Below are positions 5,291-60,560 of a DNA stretch of 64,000 nt, piece by piece. Position 1 is the stretch's first letter, and each line of letters starts with the position of its first letter. The notes under the pieces are model-generated. The model was given only the letters and a program-made list of their open reading frames with translations, was not told the origin of the DNA and made no database searches. The position numbers and the translations under genes were made by a program. The stretch is from a virus, in IMG/VR virus record IMGVR_UViG_3300037117_000143, positions 4,447-68,446 of that record; one strand, written 5' to 3'.

Positions 5291-6252
5291 AGCGCTTCAA
5301 AGGCAAGACAGTCCTGATCACCGGCGCTGCCGGCTTTCTCGGTCGCCACTTGACCAAGAAATTCAAAGAGCTAGGCGCTCACGTTTACTCGCTCGACAAC
5401 TATATCACCGGTGCCGAGCATGACGAGTCAATTATGCCCGCTGACGTTACCAACCACACGGTGTTCGATGGTGCGCTCCACTACATCCTCCACGCCGCCG
5501 GCATCGCGTCTCCGGTTTTTTACGCCCAACACCCGCTGGAGACGATCGACGTTGCCGTGAAGGGCACGCGTAACATGCTTGTCCTCGCCGAGATGCATCC
5601 AGAGCTGGAAGGCTTCCTGTATTTCAGCTCGAGTGAGATCTATGGAGGTCCTCATGTCGTACCTACACCCGAAACGTACCGTGGAAATGTTAGCTGTACG
5701 GGGCCAAGAGCGTGTTATGATGAATCAAAGCGACTTGGGGAGACCCTATGTTCTATATACCACCAACAATACGGAGTTCCCGTTAGAACTGTTCGCCCAT
5801 TCAATATATTTGGGCCTGGCATGTCCCATGCGGATCGACGTGTCGTGCCCATGTTCACCTACGAGGCTCTTAATGATCGCCCTCTCCCTCTGTTTCGCGA
5901 TGGCAGGCAGACGCGTACGTTTTGCTATATCACCGATGCGATTGATGGATTTCTCAAGGTACTTTTGGACGGGCGCATAGGTGAGGCCTATAATATCGGC
6001 AACCCGAGCCCCGAGATTTCTATGCGAGATCTAACGCTCCTCTTCAAAGACTTCTTCCCGAAGTCGACCTACAAATCCATGCCATATCCCGACGAGTATC
6101 CGACCGACGAGCCCTTGCGTCGCTGTCCCGATGTCGTAAAAGCGTGGCGTGATGTCGGTTATCAGCCGCAGTGGACGCTTGCGCGCGGGCTCTGTGAATT
6201 CATCGAGTGGGCGCAGGAACAACCTTCCTATCGGGACTTAACGATTTCTTGA
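5287..6252 (+). CDS. UDP-glucuronate decarboxylase (UDP-xylose synthase)-like SDR
   Basis: GAAGFLG, LDNYITG, IASP..Y, SSSEIYG, GNVSCTGPRACYDESKR, QTRTFCYI.D, YNIGNP, DEPLRRCPD. Confidence 0.85.
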   Translation: MKRFKGKTVLITGAAGFLGRHLTKKFKELGAHVYSLDNYITGAEHDESIMPADVTNHTVFDGALHYILHAAGIASPVFYAQHPLETIDVAVKGTRNMLVLAEMHPELEGFLYFSSSEIYGGPHVVPTPETYRGNVSCTGPRACYDESKRLGETLCSIYHQQYGVPVRTVRPFNIFGPGMSHADRRVVPMFTYEALNDRPLPLFRDGRQTRTFCYITDAIDGFLKVLLDGRIGEAYNIGNPSPEISMRDLTLLFKDFFPKSTYKSMPYPDEYPTDEPLRRCPDVVKAWRDVGYQPQWTLARGLCEFIEWAQEQPSYRDLTIS

Positions 6253-6272
6253 CATGCACCTGATTACATGCT
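6238..6272 (+). promoter_or_regulatory. CtrA-box-like late promoter upstream of the head-gene operon
   Basis: TTAA-cgatttc-TTGA-N11-TTACAT. Confidence 0.5.
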
Positions 6273-9914: not shown

Positions 9915-10424
9915 ATGACAAAACCTAATCCCCGAGCCCGCGCTTATCCCGCGCAACGTGCTGCCCGCGTTGACCGTTCAAAAATGACCCTGGAGGAATG
10001 GGCAGGGCATAAACGCATAAAAGATTGTGAAAAGTGCGCCCGATGGAATGCACGTAATCCAGGAAAAAGTAACAGCAACCTTAGACGGCGTCGCGCTGAA
10101 AATCCGTGGTATTCTTCATTACTGCATGCGGGCGATCGCTCAAGAAAAAATGGGTTGGTTTATGACCTTACAATTGAGTGGGCCATTGCTACCTATACCG
10201 GAGCTTGCTCTTTGACCGGCATCCCATTTATTATTTCTGCACAAGGGCCAGCTGGTAAGAGCGGCCTTCGCCCTTACTCCCCGTCTATTGATCGGATTAA
10301 CCCACTGAAAGGCTACACCCAAGACAATTGCCGGTGGGTGCTAAGTGCGGTGAACTCGTTTAAAGGCGAAATGACCGATGCCGAAATGCTGACGATCGCG
10401 AAGGCCCTTCTCGCGCAAGCTTAA
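9915..10424 (+). CDS. HNH-like homing endonuclease
   Basis: G.CSLTGIPF, SPSIDRINPLKGYTQDNCRWV...VNSFK; SD AGGAGA. Confidence 0.8.
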   Translation: MTKPNPRARAYPAQRAARVDRSKMTLEEWAGHKRIKDCEKCARWNARNPGKSNSNLRRRRAENPWYSSLLHAGDRSRKNGLVYDLTIEWAIATYTGACSLTGIPFIISAQGPAGKSGLRPYSPSIDRINPLKGYTQDNCRWVLSAVNSFKGEMTDAEMLTIAKALLAQA

Positions 10425-10452
10425 TCATTCCCTAACCCCCTTAGACTAGGCT
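10421..10452 (+). promoter_or_regulatory. CtrA-box-like late promoter upstream of the adaptor/tail operon
   Basis: TTAA-tcattcc-CTAA-N11-TAGGCT. Confidence 0.55.
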
Positions 10453-18491: not shown

Positions 18492-18534
18492 AGTCTCGTG
18501 TGCAATTTTCGCCATTTTATGCGGATTTTCTTAC

Positions 18535-18765: not shown

Positions 18766-18807
18766 AGCGCCTGTGGGTCTAAACCGGATAAGCACGGAAC
18801 GAGACTT

Positions 18808-19047: not shown

Positions 19048-19048
19048 C

Positions 19049-19222: not shown

Positions 19223-19292
19223 CAAGTGCGTAAGCCCGGTCGTGCTACAAGCCATATCGGCACCCACAGCCATCGTTTTTCAGGAGCAGAAA

Positions 19293-19838: not shown

Positions 19839-19849
19839 GGGGGTGTACT

Positions 19850-22635: not shown

Positions 22636-22637
22636 CC

Positions 22638-22670
22638 CTAACGGGTTATTAACCTGAAGGGGGTAAACCT
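22638..22670 (+). promoter_or_regulatory. CtrA-box-like late promoter upstream of internal virion protein genes
   Basis: CTAA-cgggtta-TTAA-N11-TAAACC. Confidence 0.55.
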
Positions 22671-22698
22671 AGAGGCAAAGCCTCTGGGAATATTTTCG

Positions 22699-29600: not shown

Positions 29601-30442
29601 AGGACTACATTGCCGCCAACCCTAACAAATCCCCGGATGAATATCAGACAATGGCCAAACGCATTCTGAAGTCGACGGATGACCGGCTCGGGGAAATGAA
29701 CCAGTCTACATTGTTCTGGAACAACAACCTGAAGAAGGCGGCCAATCTACTGATGATCTCGCCGGGCTGGGAAACTGGCACGCTGCGCACGGCCATCGGT
29801 GGTGGAAAATCGTTTGCCACTAACCCCGGACGGCTTTCAATTCAACATCCAGACTTCCAGCCGAACGCGGCGTTCCCGTTCGCTTTCGCGATCACGACTG
29901 CAACGGTGGGGTCAATTTATCAGTTTCTCAAAACTGGCGAGATGCCGAAAGACGCCAAGGATCCGTTCTTCCCGAGAACAGGTGGCACCGCGGCGAACTC
30001 TTCTCAGCCCGAGCGTGCGATCATGCCCGGCTACCTCAAGGATGTTTATTCAATGTGGCACGCTCTCACGGGATCAGAGGGCATGACCAAAAATGCGTCC
30101 TCGATGCTCTACAACAAACTTGCCATGGTGCCCCGTACAACCTGGGATACGATGGCCGATAAGGACTGGGCAGGGAAACAGATCTACAATCCATCCGACC
30201 CCCTCCACGAAAAGATGCGGCAGTATCTTGGTTACGTGCAGGAGAACATGATGCCGATCCTCGCGCAACAGGTCACGAAGGGGCAGAAGGGCACCAACAT
30301 CAGCAAGCCGGAAGCGGCTGTTGGCATTCGGCATGCACCGGGGCCCGTTCAGGACCCACAGAAATCGGAGACGGGTATAGCCAAAGCCAATAAAAGGGCG
30401 CAGGATGAGTCCAAGAAGTTCCACCAGAAAATTGGCTTCTAA
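26699..30442 (+). CDS. Large internal virion / DNA-ejection protein
   Basis: 1247 aa; N-terminal NPYA[QK]FAQ repeats x3, LYGGQ repeats x3; last large structural gene. Confidence 0.7.
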   Translation: MADPDINPYAQFAQDQQQSDQPAPDENPYAKFAQQPDQPAPDENPYAKFAQQPQQDQSNQRTWPEEISRDVRGFARGLIPAAGAGVGIVAGGIAAGLPGAIAGGIGGGFAADAVQNKLTDALGIDSEASRQADAANPNVGSIASELAPMAASFNVPGLGVKLATRLTNAAAMGGLDIAQQALTKGTSNIDPTEALASAGAGAVLGAPRAGIQKAGEAVGARVGAALGRSPAVTPGSEGTAAEHAPANDAKTAPAGEQTGDGFAAVPDTNEYLKNDNPASEAGVPGAETTPLNVGKGSPMDDPAVQAAMKPPQQGMDVNPEAQLYGGQPPATPDVNPEAELYGGQKPPPPETQPRAPAGQPEYQPNYEAELYGGQPRGEPPTEQPTRPPAAQAAIERRNPDNQMLGDQVERRGGPTPKAAKGNLDEPLTPEELASPAGEPGRPAVKAEPPEATQAAIGGRTPETPAQRQKLIDDIFPGEAPAPDTAGLETPPKDLSLPDDGSIPDFLKRPAPQSLSGAATENPTFAAAEVAKQKSKIGEAIGNFAPVKWFWTAFTPEGLTENTGKFENIVREGQGTINQARLTSDRNMNELTTAINSTTPEARDEFARTFQTGVPKDNPLARLSSSALDTQNDYAVRIGKVDPDGNWQNGMLPAMFADKQGAKDFATQWQEDERHGVPTIGDFLNAGIKPSPNWLRQDGSIDPVRMMQNLHTAQDKFLEGKFIANKATDEGIIFPHNVPGTVPLEGLTRGGAPLYAEPEVATMWNRYFGPNAVDPTEKSFYNTAQKVKNFTTAWQLVGGGYHMVAETTEAITGDVMKAISQAAAGRFGDAGMKLKGALVAPYRQATKSASDALEAYYDPKNAGPARAAIDYLVKGGLTPERVARYTPDINSAAHGFFTGWNVEMPQGLKGLGVDKLGMSELAAQAQKGPAGAAKSMYQLLGKSMQSVMEPMFNTYIPRLKLGASLEQMQDYIAANPNKSPDEYQTMAKRILKSTDDRLGEMNQSTLFWNNNLKKAANLLMISPGWETGTLRTAIGGGKSFATNPGRLSIQHPDFQPNAAFPFAFAITTATVGSIYQFLKTGEMPKDAKDPFFPRTGGTAANSSQPERAIMPGYLKDVYSMWHALTGSEGMTKNASSMLYNKLAMVPRTTWDTMADKDWAGKQIYNPSDPLHEKMRQYLGYVQENMMPILAQQVTKGQKGTNISKPEAAVGIRHAPGPVQDPQKSETGIAKANKRAQDESKKFHQKIGF

Positions 30443-30470
30443 CGCATCCTTAACCCTTGCCAGATAGGCT
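30439..30470 (+). promoter_or_regulatory. CtrA-box-like promoter
   Basis: CTAA-cgcatcc-TTAA-N11-TAGGCT. Confidence 0.55.
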
Positions 30471-49111: not shown

Positions 49112-49168
49112 GGCAGGATTGCCGACAATGCCCCGTGGCAACGTGCTACGGGGCATCAGCTGCAATTA
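49112..49168 (-). ncRNA. Early-operon structured RNA motif, copy 3
   Basis: UAAUUGC-AGC-UGAUGCCCCGU...ACGGGGCAUUG-UCG-GCAAUC-CUGCC. Confidence 0.7.
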
Positions 49169-50182
49169 CGCTGCAACACGGTCCTTAATCATCGGCATCA
49201 ACAAGCCTAGCGCCTTGTCCTTGAGCGCCGCGCCGGAACCAAAGAGGCGGTTTTCAGTATTGCCAGCATCACGATCATGGTCAACATAGCGCGTGATCGC
49301 CTGAAGCGCGGTAAAGGCATCAATGTTCGCAGCGCCACCCGTGAACTTTATCGCCCGCTCGTTGCACGAGGTTGAAAGCGCATCGATAATCGATTGACGC
49401 TGATTTTTTTTGCGCGTCGAAACGTCTTTTTGTTCAGCGTCAATTGGAATATCCAGAACGCCGCGAATGAACGCGGAGAGCGCTTCCTTAGGCATAATGA
49501 AGCCGGCCAAAGCATCGCCGATTTGCTTGTACTGCGCGAAGCCGGCCGCAATCGATGCAAGGGCTTTCATCGCCTTTGCAGCGTCGAACTTGGTGGAATG
49601 GCGCACGTTGATTTTGGGCGCGTCCTCACCCATGGCGACATTGATTGTATTCTGACAAACAACGCATTCCATGCATGATTGTAGGCGCGTAGGGCTTGTC
49701 GTGTTGAACGTAGTGGAAGCTAGTAGGCGCACCTTGTGCGCCGATCCGCCGATGGTTTGTTCACCTGCAAAAGTGGCCTGTGCCCATATGCGTTTTCCGC
49801 CATCAAGGCTCCCCATAGTCGTCATGGTGAAACGCGGATCGATCTCGATCAATTCCCATAGTGCATTTTGCGCGTCAACCGGTTGCACCAAATTGTAGCG
49901 CGTGGAAACAAGGCCAAGCCCCGCGCCGGTATCTTCCCGGGCATTTACGAAACGATCCGGATAGTCGCGCAGCGCGCCCGTAGCGTCGCGGTAGTGCACG
50001 GGAGTGGCGCTAACAGTGAAGCTTGACCCAGCGGCTTCGCTCCACTCTTCCCGCGTCAGCGGCCGGCCAAGGCGCGCCACGATATCGTCAACCGATTGGC
50101 CAGTACCGTGCCAGATTTTTGAACGTGGGCCGACGAAAGCAAGGGCGACAAAGCCCAAGGTCTCGTCAAGATTTGCAGACAT
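49166..50182 (-). CDS. DUF932/DUF945 family protein
   Basis: WHGTG, LGLVS.RY..VQP, GSLDGGKRIW, VVCQNT, RHS, A.QAIT.YVDH; SD AGGAG. Confidence 0.85.
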   Translation of the reverse strand: MSANLDETLGFVALAFVGPRSKIWHGTGQSVDDIVARLGRPLTREEWSEAAGSSFTVSATPVHYRDATGALRDYPDRFVNAREDTGAGLGLVSTRYNLVQPVDAQNALWELIEIDPRFTMTTMGSLDGGKRIWAQATFAGEQTIGGSAHKVRLLASTTFNTTSPTRLQSCMECVVCQNTINVAMGEDAPKINVRHSTKFDAAKAMKALASIAAGFAQYKQIGDALAGFIMPKEALSAFIRGVLDIPIDAEQKDVSTRKKNQRQSIIDALSTSCNERAIKFTGGAANIDAFTALQAITRYVDHDRDAGNTENRLFGSGAALKDKALGLLMPMIKDRVAA

Positions 50183-50265
50183 AATATTTGCTCCTAGGTG
50201 AGAGTTTTTAGGGGCGGTGACCGCCGTTCTAGGTCACATTAGGCTCAAACGAAAGCACCCCTAGC

Positions 50266-50314
50266 GGCATGATTGCCGAACCTGCGCCCGCTAGGGCGCA
50301 AGCGCTGCAATCAA
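50266..50314 (-). ncRNA. Early-operon structured RNA motif, copy 4
   Basis: UUGAUUGC-AGC-GCUUGCGCCC(UAGC)GGGCGCAGGU-UCG-GCAAUCA-UGCC. Confidence 0.7.
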
Positions 50315-50484
50315 TCCTCAAAACGGTCGCGGGACAGGTAGCGTGTGAAGTATTCATCGACGGCGAGGGGTTCCGGATATTGCGGCGCCACGACATGCAA
50401 GGTGGCGGCGGTGCGGGCGATTTCGCGTCTAGCGTGGTCTCGATGACCGGCATAAGCGGCTAGCTGCAGCAGTGGGGTAAGCAT
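50311..50484 (-). CDS. 57-aa early protein (not in ORF track)
   Basis: SD AAGGA; MLTPLLQLAAYAGH...RDRFED*; stop lies inside motif copy 4. Confidence 0.55.
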   Translation of the reverse strand: MLTPLLQLAAYAGHRDHARREIARTAATLHVVAPQYPEPLAVDEYFTRYLSRDRFED

Positions 50485-50520
50485 GTGATATTCCTTTTGG
50501 TTGGCGGTTTCTATGGATTG

Positions 50521-50549
50521 AATGTGCGCCCGATCGCAAAACGTTTCAA
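50521..50549 (-). promoter_or_regulatory. Sigma70-type early promoter
   Basis: TTGAAA-N17-CACATT. Confidence 0.5.
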
Positions 50550-50579
50550 GCTAAATCTTTTGTGATTTGTGGTGATGGT

Positions 50580-50762
50580 TTACAACGTGTTAACGTATCG
50601 GGCATCTGGTCCCCAGTACTCAGGGGGTGGCGCTAGAACGCGGCGCTTATCCTGTGGCGGGAATTGCCCGCCCCAGCGATTCATGTATGCCTTGTGCTCT
50701 GCCTTGGCGGTATTGGCCGCGGCGCGCCCGTGCTTAAATTCAATCCATTCTAAATGTGTCAT
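50580..50762 (-). CDS. Hypothetical early protein
   Basis: ORF in operon orientation with GGA SD. Confidence 0.5.
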   Translation of the reverse strand: MTHLEWIEFKHGRAAANTAKAEHKAYMNRWGGQFPPQDKRRVLAPPPEYWGPDARYVNTL

Positions 50763-50794
50763 GACAACTTGTTTCCATCTTCGCTAGGCGGCAG

Positions 50795-50978
50795 CAGGGC
50801 TTTGATGGCCGCGTCTAGGTTGGGGTCTGCAGGCTCAGGTATGACCGTGGCAACGTGCTCAGAGGGCATTGCGGCAACGTTGGCCACAGGGCTTTGATGG
50901 CCGCGTCTAGGTTGGGGTCTGCAGGCTCAGGTATGACCGTGGCAACGTGCTCAGAGGGCATTGCGGCAACGTTGGCCA
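50795..50978. repeat. Perfect 92-bp tandem duplication
   Basis: 50795-50886 is identical to 50887-50978. Confidence 0.92.
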
Positions 50979-51312
50979 ATACAGCGGCCGGTAGCGGTAC
51001 GCTCTCTACAGTCTCAAGGATGGTCGCAATAGACGCGGCAACAGCAGGGGTGAGCTTAGCCTCGTGCCTGGCGCGTTCAATCCGATTTAGAGTGTCAATA
51101 GTGGGGTCGCCGGTCAATACGATTGGCTTGTCTAGTGCGCCTCGTTCGGCCTGCCTCTTACGATTTAGCATGATGTCCAGGCGACGCTCGACTTGTATTA
51201 TTTGTCCGCCTATTTTAAACCAAGGACCATAAGCCTTGTCGTTTGTGTAGCGAGCTTGTTCCTTCTTTAGTGCGGCGATCTTCTCTCGGCATTGATCGAT
51301 GCTTCTTGCCAT
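50815..51312 (-). CDS. First leftward early gene (C-terminus frameshifted by the 92-bp duplication)
   Basis: SD AAAGGG; downstream of a strong promoter. Confidence 0.65.
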   Translation of the reverse strand: MARSIDQCREKIAALKKEQARYTNDKAYGPWFKIGGQIIQVERRLDIMLNRKRQAERGALDKPIVLTGDPTIDTLNRIERARHEAKLTPAVAASIATILETVESVPLPAAVLANVAAMPSEHVATVIPEPADPNLDAAIKALWPTLPQCPLSTLPRSYLSLQTPT

Positions 51313-52108
51313 TTTGTAACCCTTTCACGGTTCAAATTATCTTATAATTATTTTATTATAGCTGTCAAGGGGTCATAATCCAGGGGGAGCAAAGATAATG
51401 GGATAATCAAAACGAGCGGAAAACGTCAATGGTGGCAACGTGTTATAAGGGTCGCCCTCAAAAGTCAGCTAGAAATAAGACTTCTATAATATACTATACA
51501 TGAGAAAAAGTGGAACGTCCCCCTGGGGCTTCATGCATCCTTACGAGGCCGTGAGCACGTTGCCACGTGAGCCCCCGTGAAAGTCTGTTATACATTAGAA
51601 TCCGGTCGGATTATGCCGATTTGACCCCCTTTTGGCACGTTTTCCCCTTTAAAACCTCATAATCCATATTTATTGCTATATAGCGGATTATGCTACATAA
51701 TGTCGCAGGTAATCCTAATAATGGAATCTAATAAATCTAATAACGGTGCGACCTTTAGCCGCAGGCAGCTCGCATACCGTGACAAGGCACGTTAACCCGT
51801 TGATATCAATGCGACATTTAGCCGCGCCTGTGGCAACGTGCCACTCGAGTTAACTATAGTGCGATCACGGTTTTGTGATTTGACTTAAAGAAGTTCAATG
51901 AAATCAGGGATTTAGATGGTTAACGGGTGTGGGGTGGCACCGTGTTAGGGTTAACCGGGTGGATGCCTGGCCCGGCGGCACGGCACAACTTTTGCAAGAA
52001 AGCAGGAGGTACGCACACCTAGGTTGTATTTTTGGAGTGTTAAGGTTTTCTTTACTGATTTGGCCCAAAACCTTGACTACCACGGTAGAACGGTGATACG
52101 GTAGCCTC
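51313..52108. other. About 800-bp AT-richer non-coding divergent control region (origin or genome-end candidate)
   Basis: No credible ORF; strand switch; repeated ATAAT, GTTAAC and GTGGCAACGTG elements. Confidence 0.6.
51339..51368 (-). promoter_or_regulatory. Sigma70-type early promoter
   Basis: TTGACA-N18-TAAGAT (or N16-TATAAG), AT-rich spacer. Confidence 0.65.
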
Positions 52109-52405
52109 ATGACGCGGAAGCTGACGTTCGACGAGATCAACCGACCCTACGCCGTCTACCGGCTCTTCGACGAAGCCGGCACCCTGCTCTATATCGGGTG
52201 CTCCCACAATCCCCCAGGAAAAAGGTTCCCGACCCACCGAAAAAAATCCTGGGCGGCCGAGATTGATTGGGATAAGTTAAAGCTCGAGTGGTTCGCGAAC
52301 TGGTCGCTGGCCACCCTGGGAGAGTACTACGCCATCGCCACGGAAGACCCAAAATACAACTGCCAGCACACGCTGGTCTACGGCAGAGTAGGAGCCTACA
52401 AATGA
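52109..52405 (+). CDS. GIY-YIG nuclease-domain protein
   Basis: AVYRLFD..G.LLYIG.S, R...H, E..AI..E.PKYN. Confidence 0.85.
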   Translation: MTRKLTFDEINRPYAVYRLFDEAGTLLYIGCSHNPPGKRFPTHRKKSWAAEIDWDKLKLEWFANWSLATLGEYYAIATEDPKYNCQHTLVYGRVGAYK

Positions 52406-52497
52406 TCGAGTTCATCGTTGTGCTGGTTATCGGGTGGGCTATCTACGTCCTGTTGCCGATTGCCATGAGCGGCCTCTTCGCAAAGAAAAAGCCTTGA
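52402..52497 (+). CDS. 31-aa membrane peptide
   Basis: SD AGGAG; MIEFIVVLVIGWAIYVLLPIAMSGLFAKKKP. Confidence 0.55.
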   Translation: MIEFIVVLVIGWAIYVLLPIAMSGLFAKKKP

Positions 52498-52523
52498 CGG
52501 GTGCCACCGTGCCACGGTATACG
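52494..52523 (+). promoter_or_regulatory. Sigma70-type promoter with GTGCCAC repeats in the spacer
   Basis: TTGACG-ggtgccaccgtgccacgg-TATACG. Confidence 0.55.
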
Positions 52524-52559
52524 CGATCGGCGAAGTGCGTATAAACGAGGACCATCCCC

Positions 52560-52751
52560 ATGGCCAAACCAGGTAAGCGCAAGTTCCCCCTCTGCGACGT
52601 CTGGGCGAAGGACATCCTAGCACCGTATCGCCGTGGGGGCTACGAGGCAAAATATAACCAGCTCGAGCAGGCGATCTACGAAGCGCTGGTGGAAGCGTGC
52701 CAACGTGGCACCCCGCTGCCGTTCGGTTATGTCGAAGCAGGGCCGGCCTGA
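52560..52751 (+). CDS. Hypothetical protein
   Basis: SD GAGGA; TGATG-coupled to the next gene. Confidence 0.6.
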   Translation: MAKPGKRKFPLCDVWAKDILAPYRRGGYEAKYNQLEQAIYEALVEACQRGTPLPFGYVEAGPA

Positions 52752-53608
52752 TGACCCCCCGAAAAATCCTGATTTGTGGTTTGCCTGGCAGTGGCAAGAC
52801 CACGCTGGCAAAATCGCTAGCACCGCTGATCAACGCCGTGCACTATGACGGCGACGAAGTTCGCTCCGTGACCCTCAACGACGACTTCAGCGTGGCTGGT
52901 CGCGCCAAACAGGTCGTCGACATGCGATGGTTGTGTGACAAGGTGAGAGCCGCGGGGCAGAACGTGATCGCCAGTTTTATTTGCCCGACTGCCGCTCTTC
53001 GCGAGGTCTTCGCTGCGGACTACACTATCCTCATGGACACCTCTCCCGACATTAAATACGCCGACACCAGGGTGATGTGGGAATATCCCAGCGATCCGGA
53101 CTGGACCGTTAGAGGGTTCGGAACGAGCACCGATTCGATCTCGTCCGTTGACATGATCGTTGCAGACTTGAACAAGCCAGCACCTTCCCCGTACGCGTGG
53201 AACAACGAAGCGCCAACAGGTTTGGTTCTTGGCAGGTTCCAGCCGTTCCATGCCGGGCATAAGGCGCTCGTCGATGAAGCGTTGAAGCGCTACCCGCAGG
53301 TGATGATCTGTGTTCGGTCCATGCCGGTATCTGACAAGAATCCATACACCTCGTTGCAGGCCCGCAACTTCATTTGGGAGTCCGTAGGTGATTACGGTGA
53401 CCGCGTGCGCGTGTTGCCTATGCCAAACATCGCCTCGGTCCTCTATGGCCGGGATGTCGGCTACAAGATCGAACGGGTGCACCTTGACACGGAGACAGAA
53501 TTGATATCCGCTACCGAGATACGAGGGCGGTACGGTCAGAATTCTATTCCGTCGGTCATCAAGGACTTCAATATGGATGACCCGCTACCAGAGGAACTGT
53601 ATCCATGA
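52751..53608 (+). CDS. cysC: Adenylyl-sulfate (APS) kinase fused to a HIGH-family nucleotidyltransferase
   Basis: GLPGSGKTT, DGDEVR, DFS..GR..Q, IASFICP, WEYP; then LGRFQPFHAGH and ISATEIR. Confidence 0.8.
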   Translation: MTPRKILICGLPGSGKTTLAKSLAPLINAVHYDGDEVRSVTLNDDFSVAGRAKQVVDMRWLCDKVRAAGQNVIASFICPTAALREVFAADYTILMDTSPDIKYADTRVMWEYPSDPDWTVRGFGTSTDSISSVDMIVADLNKPAPSPYAWNNEAPTGLVLGRFQPFHAGHKALVDEALKRYPQVMICVRSMPVSDKNPYTSLQARNFIWESVGDYGDRVRVLPMPNIASVLYGRDVGYKIERVHLDTETELISATEIRGRYGQNSIPSVIKDFNMDDPLPEELYP

Positions 53609-53949
53609 AGAAGCATATTTTACTGATGACAGTTGGAGCGCTCGCGGTATGGGGCTGCGTAATGGCAGGCGTACTGTACGCTCACGCTAACGATACCGGC
53701 GAGGCACAGCGGCAAATCCAGGCGGACTATTCTACACCAGATGGACAAACTGGTTCCTCGCGTTGGAAAAACCGGATTTTTGACAATGAAGGAGATTGTC
53801 AATCAGTGGTCAAGACCGGGCATAACCCTGATGGTTCCGCGGACGAGGCGTGGGTAGCAGCTCTAATTGAGCTGCAGAAAATTCTGCCAGCAGGGACTAC
53901 AGTCAAATTTTCTTGTGTTCCCCTGGTACAGGGCAACAATAGCATCTGA
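53605..53949 (+). CDS. Secreted/periplasmic protein
   Basis: Signal peptide ending AHA; F.....C ... FSCVP. Confidence 0.7.
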   Translation: MKKHILLMTVGALAVWGCVMAGVLYAHANDTGEAQRQIQADYSTPDGQTGSSRWKNRIFDNEGDCQSVVKTGHNPDGSADEAWVAALIELQKILPAGTTVKFSCVPLVQGNNSI

Positions 53950-54026
53950 TCCTCGACCCAGCTGCGTTGTCCGGTTGGGTTGATGAACGGGGCCCGGTAG
54001 CTCGCACACTCCCGGGCCCCAACCAA

Positions 54027-54087
54027 TCAGGGGTAGCTGAAAGGTAGCGGGAATAGATGCCGGGGTCACGTCCGGCACCCTGGTACA
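54027..54087 (+). ncRNA. tRNA-like element lacking an anticodon arm
   Basis: TCAGGGG/ACCCTGG acceptor-like stem, TAGCT..GGTAGC D-like arm, GCCGG/CCGGC T-like arm, 3' TACA. Confidence 0.35.
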
Positions 54088-54097
54088 GGAGAATGCC

Positions 54098-54367
54098 ATG
54101 ACCTGGTTTGGACGCCGCAAGGGAGACTACGATCCGCCGTTGGTAAAGCCAGAACCGTCCAACGTTGTGCAGTTACCTAAAAAACAGCTGCGAGCACCAG
54201 AGTTTCTTAAAATTCCCGATCGGCTGCGGGGCCCGGAGCACATAGAGCGGCAGCCGGCGGAAGAGGACTGCGACGCCGTAGAGGTGTTCAAGCAGATCCT
54301 GGCTGGCCTGGAGCCCACCGAAACGCTGGTCATCTACGTCGTTGACGAGAACGACGAACTGGTTTAA
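54098..54367 (+). CDS. Hypothetical protein
   Basis: SD CAGGAG. Confidence 0.7.
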   Translation: MTWFGRRKGDYDPPLVKPEPSNVVQLPKKQLRAPEFLKIPDRLRGPEHIERQPAEEDCDAVEVFKQILAGLEPTETLVIYVVDENDELV

Positions 54368-54395
54368 CCATTTTGTATCCCCGTTATATCATACT
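54364..54395 (+). promoter_or_regulatory. Degenerate CtrA-box-like promoter
   Basis: TTAA-ccatttt-GTAT-N11-CATACT. Confidence 0.4.
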
Positions 54396-54401
54396 GGCCG
54401 C

Positions 54402-54560
54402 GGCCGGTGTGGTCGCGTAGGGTGTTGAGGTAATTCCACCCTGGGGTACGGGACTGCGCCGGCCACTTGGCTTGCTTGAGGGGACGACCCCCTGCGGTAG
54501 AGGACAACCCTCTGCTGTATGGGGCTGGCCGAACCGGTGTAAGCCGACGCCAGCCCCAAC
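54402..54560 (+). ncRNA. Putative structured ncRNA or leader
   Basis: 13-bp stem 54402-54414/54452-54464; 9-bp stem 54521-54529/54549-54557. Confidence 0.45.
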
Positions 54561-54621
54561 TACTTGACTTGCCGTCGCCCCCTGTGGCTAATAGCCGCGT
54601 GTGCGGGCAGACAAGGCCCCT

Positions 54622-55197
54622 ATGGATCTCCCCACGTTGCCACGTGATATGTCTCTCATCGCCATGCGTCTAGCGGTGGAGGGCGTACCGATCGCCGCCA
54701 TTGCCCGCGCCATAGGCCACCCGGCATCCGACGTTCGTGACACTCTCATCTACCACCTGGAAATTGGCAGCATCACCGAGATGCCAATCGCCGACTGGCC
54801 GCCCACAGCGCGCCGCTCCGACCACATGCCGGCGTTCCTGCAGAAAGAACCGGAGAAGATCCAGCTGTTCTCGTGCCAGCGAGCTCTCGGCTTGACGCGG
54901 CTCGAGGCAGGCTTCATGCTGATTCTTCTGAAGCGGGAGGAAGCCGACAAGGAGACATTGCATTTTGTCATCGAAACCCAGAGAGCGCTTCGACGCACGC
55001 GCCCGGATTCGGTTGAAAGTACTGATGTTAAGATGGTAGATGTGGTAATCTGTAAGCTGCGAAAAAAACTCAAATTAGTCAATGCAAAGATTGACACTCT
55101 GTGGGGGCACGGTTATTATTTGGACGAGAAAAGTCGGGACACAATTGAAGCTCTTTTGTTGGAGGTTAAAATAAGTGGCTCAAACTCTGGAATATAG
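54622..55197 (+). CDS. Transcriptional regulator: N-terminal HTH plus CtrA-like OmpR/PhoB winged-helix domain, no receiver domain
   Basis: EGVPIAAIARAIG; LTRLE...L..LLKR; KMVDVVICKLRKKL....IDTLWGHGYYL. Confidence 0.85.
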   Translation: MDLPTLPRDMSLIAMRLAVEGVPIAAIARAIGHPASDVRDTLIYHLEIGSITEMPIADWPPTARRSDHMPAFLQKEPEKIQLFSCQRALGLTRLEAGFMLILLKREEADKETLHFVIETQRALRRTRPDSVESTDVKMVDVVICKLRKKLKLVNAKIDTLWGHGYYLDEKSRDTIEALLLEVKISGSNSGI

Positions 55198-55579
55198 TCG
55201 TCAATACCAACGCCGGCGCAGGTTAGACCCTGAGTTCAGACTAAAGGAGAGGATCAAAACACAGATCCATAGGGCCAAGCCGGAAATACATATAAAGTAC
55301 GTTATGTACAGGACACACCAGCGCTCTCGCAAGCATGGGTGGGCTCCGATTGATCCGGCTACGCTTACGCCGTACCCTGCCGACGGCACCTGTGAACTAT
55401 GCAAAAAGAAATCAAATTCTAAACGACGCCTCCATGCGGATCACGACCACACCACCGGGCGCTTTCGGGGCTGGATCTGTTATCCCTGCAATATCGCCGC
55501 TGGGTGGGTTGAGCGCGTCGGTCTTGATGCATTTGCGGAGTGGGTGAAATATGAGAACACCTTTGCCAAAGCCGCCTGA
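55175..55579 (+). CDS. Endonuclease VII-type HNH homing endonuclease
   Basis: CELC, LHADHDHTTGRFRGWICYPCN. Confidence 0.88.
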   Translation: MAQTLEYSRQYQRRRRLDPEFRLKERIKTQIHRAKPEIHIKYVMYRTHQRSRKHGWAPIDPATLTPYPADGTCELCKKKSNSKRRLHADHDHTTGRFRGWICYPCNIAAGWVERVGLDAFAEWVKYENTFAKAA

Positions 55580-55976
55580 TAAGCCGCGGCATCTGGCCCC
55601 GGTCTCTCCACAGCTCAACGAGAAAGAGATCATCGAGCAGCTGGCCGCGCCCTGCACGATGGACAACAGCAACTATTCCCGGGTTGCTGCCTTCCTATCC
55701 ATGATCGACGTCCACGACCGACGGCTCCAACGTAGTGCGGTCGTGCAGACGGCGGCGCGCGCGCTGGCCATGATCGAGTTCCTGCGAAAGGCTGAAGCCC
55801 TGACGCGAGTCCTCCACAGCCTGGTTTCTGGCAAGTACACGCCCGAGGAGACTATAAAGGGCGTCAGCCTGGCGATTGAGAAGAATCTGGAAGCGGCCAA
55901 CGAGACCCGTATTCTCTTGCACGCGGACATGGAGAAGGTCATCCAGTGCGCCTACGAGGGGGACCCCATTCAGTAA
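55551..55976 (+). CDS. Hypothetical helical protein
   Basis: SD GGAG; coding-like codon bias. Confidence 0.65.
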   Translation: MRTPLPKPPDKPRHLAPVSPQLNEKEIIEQLAAPCTMDNSNYSRVAAFLSMIDVHDRRLQRSAVVQTAARALAMIEFLRKAEALTRVLHSLVSGKYTPEETIKGVSLAIEKNLEAANETRILLHADMEKVIQCAYEGDPIQ

Positions 55977-56001
55977 AAATTAACCTAACAACATCTATGC
56001 T
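55969..56001 (+). promoter_or_regulatory. CtrA-box-like promoter
   Basis: TTCA-gtaaaaa-TTAA-N12-TATGCT. Confidence 0.5.
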
Positions 56002-56069
56002 GCTCCAAGCGCCGTTCCGAAAACAGTGACGAGCGGCGAGGCAGGGCGGCGGGATCGAGGCGTACCCCC

Positions 56070-56447
56070 ATGTGGAATAACCAGTTTGACTATTCACACG
56101 TGTGGGGGCATTTCGTGGCAACAGTAGCAATTATTGGTACTTTCGCTGGCTACCTACCCTATGCAGCGGCCACCGCAGCGTTTATATGGTATATCTTGCA
56201 GATCTGGGAGTCCCCCGTGGTCCAGAAATTACGCCCCCGCCCAACACCCCTAGAACGTGAGCGTCGGATCGCCCTTCTAGTGGCCTCGGCCAAAGTCATC
56301 AGTGCGGAGATTGTCGCCTTGCAGCTGGTGGTCGAGGCCAAGGCCACGGCGGCCGATTTGCTGTCAACCGCAGAGACTGTTGCAAAAGACCTAAAAGATG
56401 CTACAGGTAATATCATACGGGTGGCGCCGGCCATACCGGCCCACTAG
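56070..56447 (+). CDS. Holin-like membrane protein (may extend by frameshift to 56671)
   Basis: GTFAGYLP..AA....IWY..QIWES.VVQ pattern; two hydrophobic segments. Confidence 0.65.
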   Translation: MWNNQFDYSHVWGHFVATVAIIGTFAGYLPYAAATAAFIWYILQIWESPVVQKLRPRPTPLERERRIALLVASAKVISAEIVALQLVVEAKATAADLLSTAETVAKDLKDATGNIIRVAPAIPAH

Positions 56448-56671
56448 GCCGCCTTGAGGAGTTCTTTGAGCACCGCCACGGCCATACCGGCTATACCGGC
56501 TATACCGGGGCCACAGGCGCGTTTGACTACGTATCCGATGGAGCTGCCCCGGCTGTTCCCGAGGGCAAGACTTTTGTGAAGGATGTTGGTGTTGTTCCCG
56601 CTAGTCAAGTTGGCCAGGTAGCGCCAAACAACCAGCCGGGCACCGGTAACCAGCCTCCCGAGCGCAAGTAG

Positions 56672-58147
56672 TCAGGTCCATGCCGCGGACGTAGGTGCCT
56701 GCTTCTTCCGCACCTTACGGCCCCAGATGTGCTGCGCCACGTAATCCGTCAGCCCACCGTGCACGATCAGCGAGACGTATTGCAGATCGTCGACTACGTG
56801 CGAGAAGCCTTCGATGTCGTCTTTGTTCGGCTTCGGCTTGAGGGCGCCGTCCCGCGTTTTTTTGAACCGGTAGCCGCCTGCCATTGCTCTGCAGAGGAGA
56901 GGGCAACCCGTGCGTGATATAATGAGAGACGGGCCTCCGTTAGTCTGTCTGGCCAATAGGGCTTCGACGGCCATAATCCGTTTTTCAATGTCATTTGTTG
57001 GAGCTGGGAAAGCTGCGAGGCCGAGTCTTTTAAGAGCATCAAACATACTTTCCTCAGAGACGCTGCTTTTAGATATGCCCGATGGATCGCCGATAAGGAC
57101 GACGCGGTAGCCGGTGAATTGGTTGACGAGCGTGGGGACGAGTCTTTCTTTGACATGTTTATCCAGGCCTATGTTGGTGGCGCCGACTTCCTTATGCACA
57201 AGAAGACGCCCCATGTGATCCATTTGACATACAAGGGACCAAGGGTTGCGCCCAAAGTCTTGGCCAACGAGGAGAGGATATCCCGGGATAGGTAGCGTGT
57301 CGTCCACAATGTGAAAATTAGGCCGAAAGCTTTCCTTGAATACGGCCGCGCCACTGGGGTCATCGCCGTATTCTGATTTGACGTAGCGCTTGACCCAGTC
57401 GTGGTCGATTCCCCAGAACGCAACAGGTCGCTCATAGTATTTCCTCCCCTGCGCCTCGCGCGCCGGATGGCCCACCGGCAACTTCACCGACTCTTCCGTC
57501 TGTTCCAGGAACGACAGATTTTCTGCTTCTGGAGAGAGCCCGGAGGGTTGATGAAACAATTGCCAGTCGGGCGGCAAGTTCGTCATAAAAGTATGCCAGG
57601 GGGTCATTTCCGTCGGCGAGTTGGTGTCCGCGATTATTCCACTCCACGTCGGAGTGCCACGCGCCCCCGCCGGATATCTTCCCAAACGCCCAGTGACAGG
57701 CGTAACAACATCCAAGTTCATCTCGATACATTCTGATAGCCACGCTCCCGTCAACTGCATCGATAAGAGTCTCGCTTGATCCGTTGCATCCTCCAGGGGA
57801 ATGAAGAACCACTCGCTTCGGACGTCTTCGAAGTTCAGGTGGAACACGCTCTCGCTTACTTTCCATTTGCCTAGTCCCGGGGTTGCTAAGATGGTTTCGC
57901 AGTCCTTGACGACAGTGTCCTTGAGCTGCTTCAGCGTCTGCCGCACGACCGCGTGTCTGGTGTAGCGTAGGCCGTCCGGCGCCTTCGCCTGCGCCCGCGA
58001 CTTCATGAACAGGTCCAGGATGCAGCCGGTAGTCTTCCCTGAGCCCACAGGGCCCATCAAGATGCGGCCAAACGACTTGGAGTCCATGAACCGCCCGATA
58101 GTCGGTGCGGAGCGCCTTAGATTATAGTCTATGACTATGTCTGCCAT
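56672..58147 (-). CDS. terL: Terminase large subunit
   Basis: GPVGSGKTT, VVRQT..QL..T, LLSMQLTGAWLSE, ADTN.P, GQDFG, GDPSG, SHVVDDLQY. Confidence 0.93.
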   Translation of the reverse strand: MADIVIDYNLRRSAPTIGRFMDSKSFGRILMGPVGSGKTTGCILDLFMKSRAQAKAPDGLRYTRHAVVRQTLKQLKDTVVKDCETILATPGLGKWKVSESVFHLNFEDVRSEWFFIPLEDATDQARLLSMQLTGAWLSECIEMNLDVVTPVTGRLGRYPAGARGTPTWSGIIADTNSPTEMTPWHTFMTNLPPDWQLFHQPSGLSPEAENLSFLEQTEESVKLPVGHPAREAQGRKYYERPVAFWGIDHDWVKRYVKSEYGDDPSGAAVFKESFRPNFHIVDDTLPIPGYPLLVGQDFGRNPWSLVCQMDHMGRLLVHKEVGATNIGLDKHVKERLVPTLVNQFTGYRVVLIGDPSGISKSSVSEESMFDALKRLGLAAFPAPTNDIEKRIMAVEALLARQTNGGPSLIISRTGCPLLCRAMAGGYRFKKTRDGALKPKPNKDDIEGFSHVVDDLQYVSLIVHGGLTDYVAQHIWGRKVRKKQAPTSAAWT

Positions 58148-58737
58148 GCTAGGTGTTTCCAGTTTACACCAGAGCGAATCTTGTTGACCGTGCTTTTCTT
58201 TACACCAAACAATTTGCCGGTAGCCATTGCTGTTATTGCGCCCCTACAAGCTAAAATTTGTTTGGCTTGGTCTTCTGTAAGTTTTGCACCACCACCCTTT
58301 TCTCCTACTGCATGGCGGTTTTTCTTCATTTGGTCCGCTATGTTTTCAGCTGCTGTGCCCGGAAACAGGTGGTCCGGCCGAACGCATAAAGTAGTATCAC
58401 AGGTGTGGCACGCATAGATACCCCGGGGCACGCGCCCGATTTGGAGAGCCAGCGATATCCGTGGGGCCGACGCACGGCGGCTGCTCCCATGAAACTTAAA
58501 GCGACCATATCCGTTTTCTGCGTGCGGCTGCCACAGCCAGCATGCGCCCGGGTTCCAGTCTATTTTGACCCGAGTCCAAAAGGCCGCTTCTGTTGTTGCG
58601 CTAATGTCTGAAAGACACAGTTCTTTTTCTAGCGTTTTTCCCACGTTACCCACTCTCTGGCCGCTTGCGTTTTGATTTTTCCCTCTAAATAAACTTCCCA
58701 GCGGGCCGTGGTGCCCCACTGCGGATGGTTGAACCAA
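58135..58737 (-). CDS. HNH homing endonuclease with C-terminal HTH (start uncertain)
   Basis: FW..V, CWLW, GYG.F, ACHTCD...CVRPDHLF.GT..EN..D...K.R. Confidence 0.85.
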   Translation of the reverse strand: MVQPSAVGHHGPLGSLFRGKNQNASGQRVGNVGKTLEKELCLSDISATTEAAFWTRVKIDWNPGACWLWQPHAENGYGRFKFHGSSRRASAPRISLALQIGRVPRGIYACHTCDTTLCVRPDHLFPGTAAENIADQMKKNRHAVGEKGGGAKLTEDQAKQILACRGAITAMATGKLFGVKKSTVNKIRSGVNWKHLAWQT

Positions 58738-59756
58738 AGCGCTTGGGAGGGTGTTGTGGGTGGTGCACGCAGCTTAAGCGCCGCATATTCATCCCAGCCT
58801 TTTAGCGCGTTATTTACTGTTACTCCCGGAAGCCACAAAAGTTGGTGCCAGTGGCATAAAACTAATTCGTCGAAGTCCAGGCCGATTTTATGAGTTTGCT
58901 GACCAAGCTTGATGCTACCTCTGACGACGGGCCCGATTGCCGCAATAATTCCATCGCCACCTTTAACTCCAAGATTATCGCCATGTGAAAGCATATATTT
59001 GGTGCCGAAGCTCTGATAGTGAACGTCGGCGGCCTCGGGGGCATCAATGTGGATGAACTTGTTTTGCCGCGAACCAAACATCCCTTTACTGAAATGGCGG
59101 ATCACGTTGCAGTAGAGAGCGTAGTCATAGTTAAAATCGGTGATGCCCTTGAAGGGTGGCTTGCGAGTAGTACGCCCGTGATTACCAACACAACAGGGGA
59201 CGTACACCTTGCCGAACTTGCTCGCCATGTGTTCGAGCCCCGTGCAGAGGATGTCGGTCATGAACTCGACCGACCGGAGTGGCGTCATATCGTTGGAACG
59301 GGCGAGTTCCTCGTGGATATCCCCCCCAATCATGTCGCCGCCTAAATTGACAATGATGCCGGGGTACTCGGTTTTGGCTTGCCCCATATGCTCGTAACAG
59401 AGATCCACGGTCGTATCGAATAACCGTAAAAACCTCTTTTTACAGACATCTTTGTTGAACCTGTTGACGTTATTAACGCCCTTGGGTTGGACCACCTCGC
59501 CCGCGTGCGAGTCTGACCACACTGTTATCGGGCAGCCGCGTGAGCCGATCTTGCCGCCCTTTCCGGAAATCCAATCTGGCGGCGTCGGATCGTACTTGGC
59601 GATGTCAAAATACATCTGCCGCACTTCGTCGGCGGTGTCGCCTACAACCTGCAGATCAGCTATTTGCCGCTTGTAGTCCCTGATCTCAGATATTTGCTTG
59701 CGGATGATCTCGTTTGCGTCTTGCACTTTCTCGGCGTCTGTCTTCAATTTGACCAT
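58629..59756 (-). CDS. Calcineurin-like metallophosphoesterase
   Basis: SDSHAGE, GGDMI, VGNHGR, SHGD, CHWH; N-terminal coiled coil. Confidence 0.85.
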   Translation of the reverse strand: MVKLKTDAEKVQDANEIIRKQISEIRDYKRQIADLQVVGDTADEVRQMYFDIAKYDPTPPDWISGKGGKIGSRGCPITVWSDSHAGEVVQPKGVNNVNRFNKDVCKKRFLRLFDTTVDLCYEHMGQAKTEYPGIIVNLGGDMIGGDIHEELARSNDMTPLRSVEFMTDILCTGLEHMASKFGKVYVPCCVGNHGRTTRKPPFKGITDFNYDYALYCNVIRHFSKGMFGSRQNKFIHIDAPEAADVHYQSFGTKYMLSHGDNLGVKGGDGIIAAIGPVVRGSIKLGQQTHKIGLDFDELVLCHWHQLLWLPGVTVNNALKGWDEYAALKLRAPPTTPSQALWFNHPQWGTTARWEVYLEGKIKTQAAREWVTWEKR

Positions 59757-60012
59757 AGCAATATCTTTCTTGACTGATGATGCCTTTTGGAGAATCTCGA
59801 TGTCGCCTGTGTTTTCTCAACCCGAGAGGAGATTTATCGTATCCCCTCATCCTTGCTAGTCCCAGCGGGCTCGTGTTGTACCGGGACTGAGTTTTTTTCC
59901 CTAGCACTGAGATCTGGTATCGAGATTGGCGCTGTTTCCTGAGCAACCGGTACTGCTTCAATTGTTTTTGTAATTGTTTGTTGGTCGGATCCAGTAGTAA
60001 TATTGATAACAT
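59686..60012 (-). CDS. Basic ORF overlapping the TerS 3' end (endonuclease N-terminal repeat-like remnant)
   Basis: Repeated RY..SP.G units; fills the 59757-59833 gap. Confidence 0.3.
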   Translation of the reverse strand: MLSILLLDPTNKQLQKQLKQYRLLRKQRQSRYQISVLGKKTQSRYNTSPLGLARMRGYDKSPLGLRKHRRHRDSPKGIISQERYCYGQIEDRRRESARRKRDHPQANI

Positions 60013-60457
60013 ATCTTTCACCCGCAGCCGGGCCTTCTTTGACTTCGCCGGCACCGGCGAGCTTGGCGAAGAGCTTCGCTGCTTCGACGACTTGGTTGAG
60101 CTGCTCTTTGTCATCTGTCATCCGTAGGGCGAGGTGAGGCAGGCTGTCTTCTAGCGCTGCTGCGGCCTCAATGGCAATCCTCTTGTTGGTTGATAGCGCA
60201 CTTTCCCACTCCATCACAAACGTTTCGTATGCCCGCTTGTAGAGAGGGTTAACGGCGACGAACGTCTCGAATTGGCCTTTGGTGATGCCGGCGGAGCGCA
60301 GGACGATCGCTTCGCTGCGGATATCCATCGCCTTCTCGCGGGCGAGCGCGGCGATCTGGTTTGCCGTAAGGTTCGGATGCACAGGCTTGCTTGACAAATC
60401 GTGGCTTTCGTAAACCTCGACGTCCTCGAACCCCGTCTCTACTAGCGGAATGGTCAT
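59834..60457 (-). CDS. Terminase small subunit (putative)
   Basis: LARE.AMD, helical body, C-terminal GERYVINI; heads the terminase operon. Confidence 0.65.
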   Translation of the reverse strand: MTIPLVETGFEDVEVYESHDLSSKPVHPNLTANQIAALAREKAMDIRSEAIVLRSAGITKGQFETFVAVNPLYKRAYETFVMEWESALSTNKRIAIEAAAALEDSLPHLALRMTDDKEQLNQVVEAAKLFAKLAGAGEVKEGPAAGERYVINITTGSDQQTITKTIEAVPVAQETAPISIPDLSAREKNSVPVQHEPAGTSKDEGIR

Positions 60458-60501
60458 TTCGTTGGAATATCATAGGATTGCCTCATCTGCAAGGCAAACC
60501 T

Positions 60502-60533
60502 TTATGAAATCGTTAAGGAACGCCCGATAACCT
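60502..60533 (+). promoter_or_regulatory. CtrA-box-like promoter upstream of the portal
   Basis: TTAT-gaaatcg-TTAA-N11-TAACCT. Confidence 0.55.
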
Positions 60534-60560
60534 GCACCCAGCACTGCGCAGGAATTTTCA

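Follow-up and report, generated by a model that had tools for sequence, protein, structure and literature searches.

A receiver-less CtrA-type regulator and CtrA-like box promoters ahead of late gene blocks in a family of uncultured phages

The 64,000-nucleotide stretch of viral DNA analyzed here (the window; positions 4,447 to 68,446 of the IMG/VR record IMGVR_UViG_3300037117_000143) contains a gene, located at 54622-55197, whose 191-amino acid (aa) product ends much as CtrA ends, and boxes resembling CtrA binding sites ahead of several blocks of virion genes. CtrA is the cell-cycle master regulator of Alphaproteobacteria, and the phages of these bacteria have hitherto been known only to borrow the host protein. 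The locus raises the question of whether this phage carries a reader of its own for these boxes, or leaves them to the CtrA of the host. We favor, with moderate confidence, the view that the gene encodes a phosphorylation-independent activator of late transcription, predicted to act as CtrA does at the -35 region of promoters.

The protein has the C-terminal winged helix of an effector domain, and no receiver. The sole domain found by Pfam is Trans_reg_C (PF00486; residues 131-167, profile positions 39-77 only), at 26.2 bits, a score equal to the cut-off. Response_reg is not among the Pfam matches at E up to 1, and a receiver domain with its phospho-acceptor aspartate is missing from the AlphaFold 2 (AF2) model and from the alignment with CtrA as well. 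The AF2 model (predicted local distance difference test, pLDDT, 91.7; predicted template modelling score, pTM, 0.66) features, in this order, a three-helix N-terminal unit (helices at residues 8-19, 24-31 and 35-48), linker helices, the winged helix and a long C-terminal helix, with no receiver fold. The N-terminal unit, marked throughout the family by the motif RLAxEGVPVxAIAR, occupies the place of the CtrA receiver, a result in line with the preliminary description of this DNA, according to which the receiver had been replaced by a helix-turn-helix (HTH)-like domain. Among solved structures, the family profile matches in this unit the HTH repeat protein 2lvs (E 4.9e-5), and VIA aligns residues 7-54 to 9w4v (Z 6.6). 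Foldseek assigns the C-terminal part to the OmpR/PhoB DNA-binding domains (probability 1.00, about 82-85 columns), and VIA aligns the winged helix to VanR, ArlR and PmrA (Z 8.0-8.2). In OmpR/PhoB effector domains a sheet precedes the helices; at this place, ahead of the winged helix, the AF2 model has helices and no sheet. No CtrA entry is among the matches when solved structures are searched with the sequence of the regulator. A two-copy complex, predicted with the family alignment (59 sequences), scores 0.39 against a mark of 0.42, and is counted neither way.

The best NCBIfam model for the protein is CtrA (NF045991; 32.3 bits, E 8.2e-8, model positions 181-223 only), followed by PhoB (20.5 bits), both scores being far below the equivalog cut-offs. 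Five alphaproteobacterial genomes, reached via weak genomic matches and hosting one CtrA orthologue each above the cut-off, served for comparison, along with 25 loci of other OmpR-family regulators (paralogues) from the same genomes. Searched by phmmer with the C-terminal 92 aa, all five CtrA orthologues score 26.0-30.4 bits, the top paralogue open reading frame (ORF) 13.1 bits. The residues ICKLRKKL of the recognition helix are identical in the regulator and the five orthologues, and the wing reads TLWGHGY in the former, TVWGRGY in the latter; in the paralogues, R replaces the W of the wing, and S, G or H followed by R replaces CK of the helix. The close likeness of helix and wing to those of CtrA, noted earlier from the sequence alone, is thus borne out. 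In the family alignment W161, G164 and Y165 of the wing and K137, D140, V141 and R147 of the helix are invariant, and C144 is kept in at least 90% of the members. A tree of the winged helix (57 rows, 79 columns; paralogues from the five genomes only, four of the 25 loci, L102, L106, L110 and L117, being left out, and root assumed among paralogues) has a branch, with support 99/92, which splits 21 paralogues from CtrA and all phage forms, so that the phylogenetic check proposed in the preliminary description places the protein with CtrA. Short receiver-less forms of 120-145 aa make a grade between CtrA and the regulator family. Judged by its sequence, the regulator carries a CtrA-type reading head; because it lacks a receiver and reaches 32 bits against the 350 set for whole CtrA proteins by NF045991, it is neither a member of the CtrA equivalog nor a response regulator.

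The boxes were monitored by a two-part weight matrix (box and -10 element, spacer of 10-13 nucleotides, nt), trained on 67 distinct sites from related contigs, own genome and a 94% relative being excluded, and run on both strands of the whole genome. Over the whole genome, matches at or above 14 bits number 10; 200 dinucleotide shuffles average 0.74 and never exceed 3. Seven intergenic sites had been proposed as CtrA-box late promoters: six are recovered at 14.4-22.1 bits (6238, 10421, 22638, 30439, 55969 and 60502; Table 1), while the seventh, at 54364, scores less than 10 bits, is read by the consensus scan as a sigma-70 type promoter and is rejected as a box promoter. A further box, at genome position 326 and hence outside the window, precedes a collagen-like fibre gene (18.7 bits). 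The remaining matches, a reverse reading of the 6238 box and two in-gene sites (61857 on the - strand, and 50579), are not taken as promoters. Each of the six window boxes has one mismatch to TTAA-N7-TTAA, and boxes with at most one mismatch are 19 in the genome. Four of the six (6238, 10421, 30439 and 55969) overlap the stop codon of the upstream gene, a caveat rightly raised at the outset, but the signal remains after masking of the stop-codon positions: 30439 ranks 2nd, 10421 6th, 6238 7th and 55969 11th of 136,752 positions, and of the 4,148 positions whose stop codon has an identical offset, no more than 1-3 reach the scores of the four boxes.

All six window boxes have a + strand gene start 7-98 nt downstream. 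The 6238 box precedes gene 6368-6688, in the block which comes before scaffold and capsid; 10421 lies 28 nt upstream of gene 10481-10903, in the block after the capsid gene which runs to the fibres; 22638 is found ahead of the virion structural gene, and 60502 27 nt upstream of the portal gene. The 30439 box is followed by an ATG (30478) located 7 nt downstream of the -10 element. The weakest of the six, 55969, precedes gene 56070-56447 (125 aa, hydrophobic N-terminal half), and is conserved only in the 94% relative. Assuming that transcripts start 7 nt after the -10 element, the 5' base of the boxes falls at -38 or -39; at activated Caulobacter promoters the 5' base of the full CtrA motif is near -35, and at -39 in ctrA P2, as reported in PMC4287350. 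Sequence of the box and distance to a -10-like hexamer fit a CtrA-activated promoter, with one mismatch in each window box and starts which are predicted only.

The same geometry recurs in relatives. A scan of 80 related loci (1.09 Mb) for boxes with no more than one mismatch and a TAnnnT element 10-13 nt further on yields 98 strand-hits, five shuffles 8-13; the spacer is 11 nt long in 61, 12 nt in 23, and the logo of the boxes has no conserved -35 hexamer. In these loci 173 of 200 matrix matches at or above 14 bits are followed, no more than 200 nt away, by the start of an ORF of 60 aa or longer, with distances peaking at 22-33 nt, a count which is descriptive only, as the loci supplied the training sites. 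Four complete relatives provided an independent test. In one (G006), boxes outside the training locus, at places orthologous to 6238, 10421, 22638 and 30439, score 22.7, 24.7, 13.9 and 20.5 bits, respectively; a second (G007) features the orthologues of 6238 (13.2 bits) and 22638 (16.8 bits), a third (G008) the orthologue of 22638 (17.1 bits), and these two and G009 keep subsets of the boxes. The boxes of the portal and collagen-like fibre genes recur in relatives too, both places being inside the training loci. A strict pattern matches 9, 1, 2, 3 and 0 times in five relatives, its reverse 0 times in all five. Upstream of the portal gene, a score of 14 bits is attained at the corresponding place in 46 of 70 distinct regions, and in 0 of 80 shuffled ones; a few low-scoring regions have incomplete flanks. 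The scan against shuffled sequence and stop codons, which the preliminary description had put forward as a check, supports the enrichment.

Such a motif might in principle be the promoter of another polymerase or sigma factor, its likeness to the CtrA box being coincidental. In podovirus-like phages, conserved late promoter motifs often have a phage polymerase as their reader, and the search for a T7-type polymerase, which gave no match, is uninformative, as its control likewise gave none. We hold this explanation to be very improbable. Sigma-factor region 4 (Sigma70_r4) was not found in the phage genome by a search whose positive control worked, and no phage RNA polymerase was found in the PHROG and Pfam scans of 30 large ORFs, nor any RNA_pol match. 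Moreover, promoters of phage polymerases are contiguous, whereas this motif comes in two parts, its spacers are degenerate and its -10 element is TAnnnT, and a reader of CtrA type is encoded in the same genomes. As neither a sigma-factor region 4 nor a polymerase was found, the polymerase of the host must be used.

The position of the boxes bears also on the sign of regulation. The protein might be a repressor, or an anti-CtrA decoy, which occupies CtrA boxes without activating; late promoters would then be off until its removal, or host CtrA targets would be blocked, arresting or redirecting the cell. The absence of the receiver would suit this role. So would the residues preceding position 131, which are unlike those of CtrA also in the regions matching helices 1 and 2, and the 8-residue insertion which the alignment reveals between helices 2 and 3, in the region where OmpR/PhoB proteins contact the polymerase. 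Yet the boxes reside at the position of an activator (-38), not over the -10 element; promoters devoid of a conserved -35 hexamer would need an activator; and the helix 2-3 loop is conserved in the family alignment (H114, E118, R121, T134 and K137), as expected for a working surface. Such a role is in our opinion improbable.

Gene and boxes are found together and are missing together, which favors the phage protein as the reader. All 10 portal-clade records with a completeness of 90% or more have the regulator gene; of the 13 records overall 11 have it, the two others being 81% complete. In contrast, RHph_TM27A, a Rhizobium phage sharing the virion module, features neither a homologue of the regulator (best tblastn E 0.86) nor a CtrA-type helix in six frames, nor any matrix match at or above 13 bits, the best score upstream of its portal gene being -4.6. 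Its host genus, Rhizobium, nonetheless has CtrA (locus L089). The co-occurrence of gene and boxes, a check proposed in the preliminary description, is found on both sides of the comparison.

Other observations weigh against a phage-encoded late activator, and several point to the host protein as the reader. The gene-less side of the comparison is made up by one lineage, four near-identical Rhizobium phages, one of which was scanned. Perfect TTAA-N7-TTAA boxes are 0 in the genome, so that all six window boxes are imperfect; 6238 and 22638 have poor -10 elements; and the likeness to CtrA is confined to residues 131-173 of the regulator. Two phages encoding distant relatives of the protein lack a late regulon: in RcKeef one perfect box is found, ahead of the thymidylate synthase gene, and in vB_PmaS-R3, where no set of composite box promoters was found, one strong box with one mismatch, in the gap before the packaging operon. 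Host CtrA is expected to recognize the same boxes, which match the host consensus and the activating position, and, according to PMC9437464 and PMC10589892, it binds or regulates promoters of other, unrelated alphaproteobacterial phages. In 16 of 59 distinct relatives the regulator gene is itself preceded by a box promoter, which has to be activated by something in the first place. At 49 portal promoters box sequence does not clearly covary with the variants of the recognition helix (CK, CN, CH and FH), the same result that would be expected if host CtrA read the boxes; phages with CH and FH often have TTAG as second half-site, but so do some CK phages, and covariation has been set aside as evidence either way.

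According to this alternative, host CtrA~P activates the boxes and couples late expression to the cell cycle of the host (lytic deferment). We consider it rather unlikely, since it leaves unexplained the missing boxes of RHph_TM27A and the presence of the gene in all near-complete members of the clade. A CtrA-type helix and wing kept under selection (C144, W161), in addition, most simply read the same boxes. The corollary that the phage protein is a competitor or a fine-tuner of host CtrA, or a regulator of other sites via its N-terminal HTH, is likewise doubtful.

The late activator that we prefer would derive from the DNA-binding domain of CtrA, a small HTH having taken the place of the lost receiver, and would work as CtrA does at promoters of class-II type. 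As the receiver is gone, its activity cannot depend on the CckA-ChpT phosphorelay. Binding, dimerization, activation and timing are here predicted from sequence and models. Two protomers would occupy the two half-sites of TTAA-N7-TTAA(C) (half-motif TTAACCAT), which are 11 bp, or one helical turn, apart and hence on the same face of the helix; candidates for pairing in a receiver-less protein are the long C-terminal helix and the N-terminal HTH. The box would lie over the -35 region and replace the -35 hexamer, the promoter having only a -10 element, TAnnnT, 11-12 nt downstream. The bound protein would recruit the sigma-70 RNA polymerase of the host, in the manner of CtrA~P at promoters it activates, and the downstream protomer would contact sigma-70 or the alpha subunit. 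PhoB is an activator of this kind, recruiting sigma-70 polymerase at pho boxes, and by analogy the helix 2-3 loop, conserved and lengthened, is a candidate for the contact surface. In this way the blocks for structural proteins, ejection proteins and portal would be headed by six or more promoters in the window, and by one elsewhere in the genome. The box ahead of the regulator gene in about one fourth of the relatives suggests positive autoregulation, or priming by host CtrA; the gene of the phage under study would rely on a sigma-70-like promoter instead.

A second job had been suggested for the protein, the silencing of host origin and division genes. A CtrA mimic which both activates late genes and occupies host CtrA sites (origin, division, motility) without phosphorylation is in our view rather unlikely. 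If it were real, the infected cell would be locked in a CtrA-on, non-replicating state favoring phage production and, in relatives with a boxed regulator gene, host CtrA~P would trigger a switch that the phage protein makes irreversible.

The regulator shares with CtrA (OmpR/PhoB family, NF045991) the ICKLRKKL helix, the TxWGxGY wing and TTAA-N7-TTAA-like boxes over the predicted -35 region, and differs in that it is encoded by a phage, lacks receiver and phospho-acceptor, and has an N-terminal HTH and a C-terminal helix in addition. PMC5026251 and PMC6363796 briefly note, with no function or regulon, an ORF of roseophage RDJLphi1 which is related to CtrA and has no receiver. Related proteins are annotated as 'CzcR-like response regulator' in RDJL3, and as 'transcriptional regulator' or 'CzcR-like response regulator' in two records of vB_PmaS-R3. 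As far as these sources tell, the three phages likewise encode the DNA-binding part of CtrA without receiver, but their proteins lack the N-terminal HTH and the linker TEMPxxDWPPTARR of the regulator family; the short forms in the tree are taken to be of the same kind as the RDJLphi1 ORF. Boxes of CtrA type are found in promoter regions of the lytic-deferment phages (PMC9437464) and of Jorvik (PMC10589892). There the reader is the host protein, and sites are clustered in one region, for example a terminal repeat or a large intergenic gap; in contrast, the phage under study has one site per late operon head and a predicted reader of its own. GafA, as described in PMC6363796, derives from a phage and activates the head and tail genes of an alphaproteobacterium, and is likewise made up by two domains with an N-terminal HTH; compared by description, its N-terminus is like DnaA domain IV and its C-terminus like a sigma factor, not an OmpR-type winged helix.

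In pho boxes read by PhoB, as in the middle promoters of T4 read by MotA, which is also phage-encoded, the site of the activator replaces the -35 hexamer at a fixed distance from the -10 element. Membership of the regulator in a family with PhoB or MotA is not claimed. VIA aligns the N-terminal domain of MotA to the winged helix only (Z 7.9), no better than many other winged helices.

In the literature within reach, supplementary tables lying outside the search, no description was found of a CtrA-derived regulator which is encoded by a phage and has a late-promoter regulon to match. As far as these sources go, what is new is a phage late activator obtained from a copied host master regulator, while host-CtrA sites in phages and the RDJLphi1 ORF were known. 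If true, a phosphorylation-independent copy of the CtrA reading head, combined with a conserved late regulon, would clearly exemplify how a virus can copy a master regulator of its host and make its own programme independent of the signals of the host. Studies of CtrA-dependent activation would also gain a natural CtrA DNA-binding domain that is constitutively active.

The family is large. Homologues of similar length are 140 at E up to 0.001 in a database clustered at 90%, many on contigs of 63-70 kb; at the same threshold, 485 representative clusters were retrieved among 1.84 billion, and the best 150 of the 485 representatives are mostly receiver-less in appearance, as judged by length and match position. 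In IMG/VR, 120 viral stretches encode a relative of the regulator, a related portal is found in at least 573 contigs, and the regulator family is common in peat and soil viromes. Given this size, the result would allow promoters and expression timing to be annotated throughout a clade of phages which are uncultured. Relatives in cultured phages are distant only, namely proteins of Rhodobacter phages of the RcKeef group (31% identity, with 85% of the length aligned), and proteins of RDJL3 and vB_PmaS-R3 which match at the C-terminus (41-43% identity over the C-terminal 80 aa). Chromosomal, receiver-less ORFs with CtrA-type helix and wing (motifs KIVDVMVCK... and TxWGxGY) were also observed in Rhodoplanes, Endobacterium, Maritimibacter, Beijerinckiaceae and Rhizobium (L083-L087), some having a CxxC, zinc-ribbon-like motif at the N-terminus and one more HTH at the C-terminus. 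Their sequences suggest a wider group of stand-alone CtrA-like domains, undescribed as far as literature searches show.

Further features were observed around the boxes. As the ATG at 30478 lies 7 nt past the -10 element, the predicted mRNA from the 30439 promoter may be leaderless; at the orthologous site of G006 (near 19252) the gene starts 6 nt after the -10 element, and the pair suggests a conserved leaderless late mRNA. The regions next to the start codon are alike in three genes with box promoters, GGAATTTTCAATG, GGAATATTTTCGATG and GAGCCTTTTCTATG (10470-10483, 22688-22701 and 60549-60563, respectively), and may serve late genes as a shared signal for the initiation of translation. A sigma-70-like promoter, TTGCCT-17-TATGAT (60497-60469, - strand), which would serve the operon leading to terminase, is back to back with the portal box promoter (60469-60533 overall), and binding at the portal box could affect transcription both ways. 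In four relatives a box promoter is located just downstream of the regulator gene (L046, about 10900; L060, about 1938; L062, about 1885; L039, about 11301). Next to it comes an element resembling a hairpin, which is conserved and reads GGGGCCCCGAA..TAACGG..CCC and then AAGGTAGGGTG. The element, which may be a small RNA or a processing signal, is not found in the window.

Upstream of the regulator gene, the sigma-70-like site at 54364 precedes a structured leader of 254 nt. The segment 54395-54560 (166 nt) folds as RNA at -96.5 kcal/mol (z -5.7), none of 200 shuffles being as good, and may be a leader or a small RNA controlling the regulator; in 54000-56200, Rfam returned a single weak match, below the gathering score. 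A candidate promoter of the gene, TTGACT-17-GCTAAT (54564-54592), was read by eye and is missing from the promoter scan output. That early promoters are of plain sigma-70 type, as originally stated, was weakly tested by counting consensus matches in 50000-61000, which are 13 against 6.9 +/- 2.5. The 11-mer GTGGCAACGTG is present in 7 exact copies, all in the 49.1-54.6 kb interval (49135-54643), and in 14 copies when one mismatch is allowed, the expected number being 1.5; the copy at 54633-54643 (- strand) falls just within the start of the regulator gene. In each of four complete relatives 0 copies are found. The 11-mer may be the operator of an early regulator specific to this phage. The N-terminal HTH, which is conserved in the relatives lacking the 11-mer, was rejected as its reader.

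The window is part of a complete viral record of 68,446 bp (bases 4447-68446), with direct terminal repeats of 127 bp and a GC content of 56%. Genes were mapped by the PHROG and Pfam scans of large ORFs mentioned above (Table 1). The first part of the genome, up to about 30.9 kb, is a long + strand block, and includes collagen-like fibres, sugar-modification enzymes and large proteins with no assignment.

Table 1. Box promoters, regulator and main genes located in the window (box promoters are given as box, spacer and -10 element)
Feature	Position	Strand	Score or basis
Box promoter TTAACGATTTCTTGA, 11 nt, TTACAT	6238..6269	+	14.4 bits; weak -10
Box promoter TTAATCATTCCCTAA, 11 nt, TAGGCT	10421..10452	+	20.5 bits
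Box promoter CTAACGGGTTATTAA, 11-12 nt, TAAACC(T)	22638..22670	+	16.9 bits; no stop-codon overlap
Box promoter CTAACGCATCCTTAA, 11 nt, TAGGCT	30439..30470	+	22.1 bits, best in genome
Box promoter TTCAGTAAAAATTAA, 12 nt, TATGCT	55969..56001	+	14.5 bits
Box promoter TTATGAAATCGTTAA, 11 nt, TAACCT	60502..60533	+	18.7 bits
Proposed seventh box, unsupported; TTAACC-17-TATCAT, sigma-70-like	54364..54392	+	consensus scan, 9/12
Receiver-less, CtrA-derived regulator gene, 191 aa	54622..55197	+	ORF list; alternative GTG start at 54601
N-terminal small HTH unit, residues ~7-54	54640..54783	+	AF2 model, profile and structure matches
OmpR/PhoB-type winged helix, residues ~89-168	54886..55125	+	Foldseek, VIA, alignment with CtrA
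Recognition helix, residues 138-153	55033-55080	+	
Wing hairpin, residues 157-167			
Major head protein	8774-9784	+	PHROG/Pfam
Tail fibres	12050-16484	+	PHROG/Pfam
Internal virion protein	19907-22276	+	PHROG/Pfam
Virion structural protein	22699-23829	+	PHROG
Replication block, including primase/helicase and DNA polymerase	31.2-52.6 kb	-	
Short block containing the regulator gene	52.7-56.4 kb	+	
Terminase	56672-58147	-	
Portal gene	60561-62867	+	

By portal, the nearest cultured phages are the Rhizobium phages RHph_TM27A/B, TM29 and TM3_14A (53.5% identity); a megablast search of 12 kb against cultured phages matched nothing. Near-identical DNA was found, by a search of sequencing runs, in peat and permafrost metagenomes, six metatranscriptome runs being among the results. 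Four RNA runs were compared with 5000-24900, all as contigs, from which starts, ends and strands cannot be read. The phage may be active in its peat habitat, DNA carry-over being an alternative source of the signal: contigs with 0 differing letters were observed across several late genes in one peat metatranscriptome (run X8), in which contigs with 0-1 differing letters cover the capsid gene (8320-9737) at a word depth of 110-115, against 0-12 in adjacent bins.

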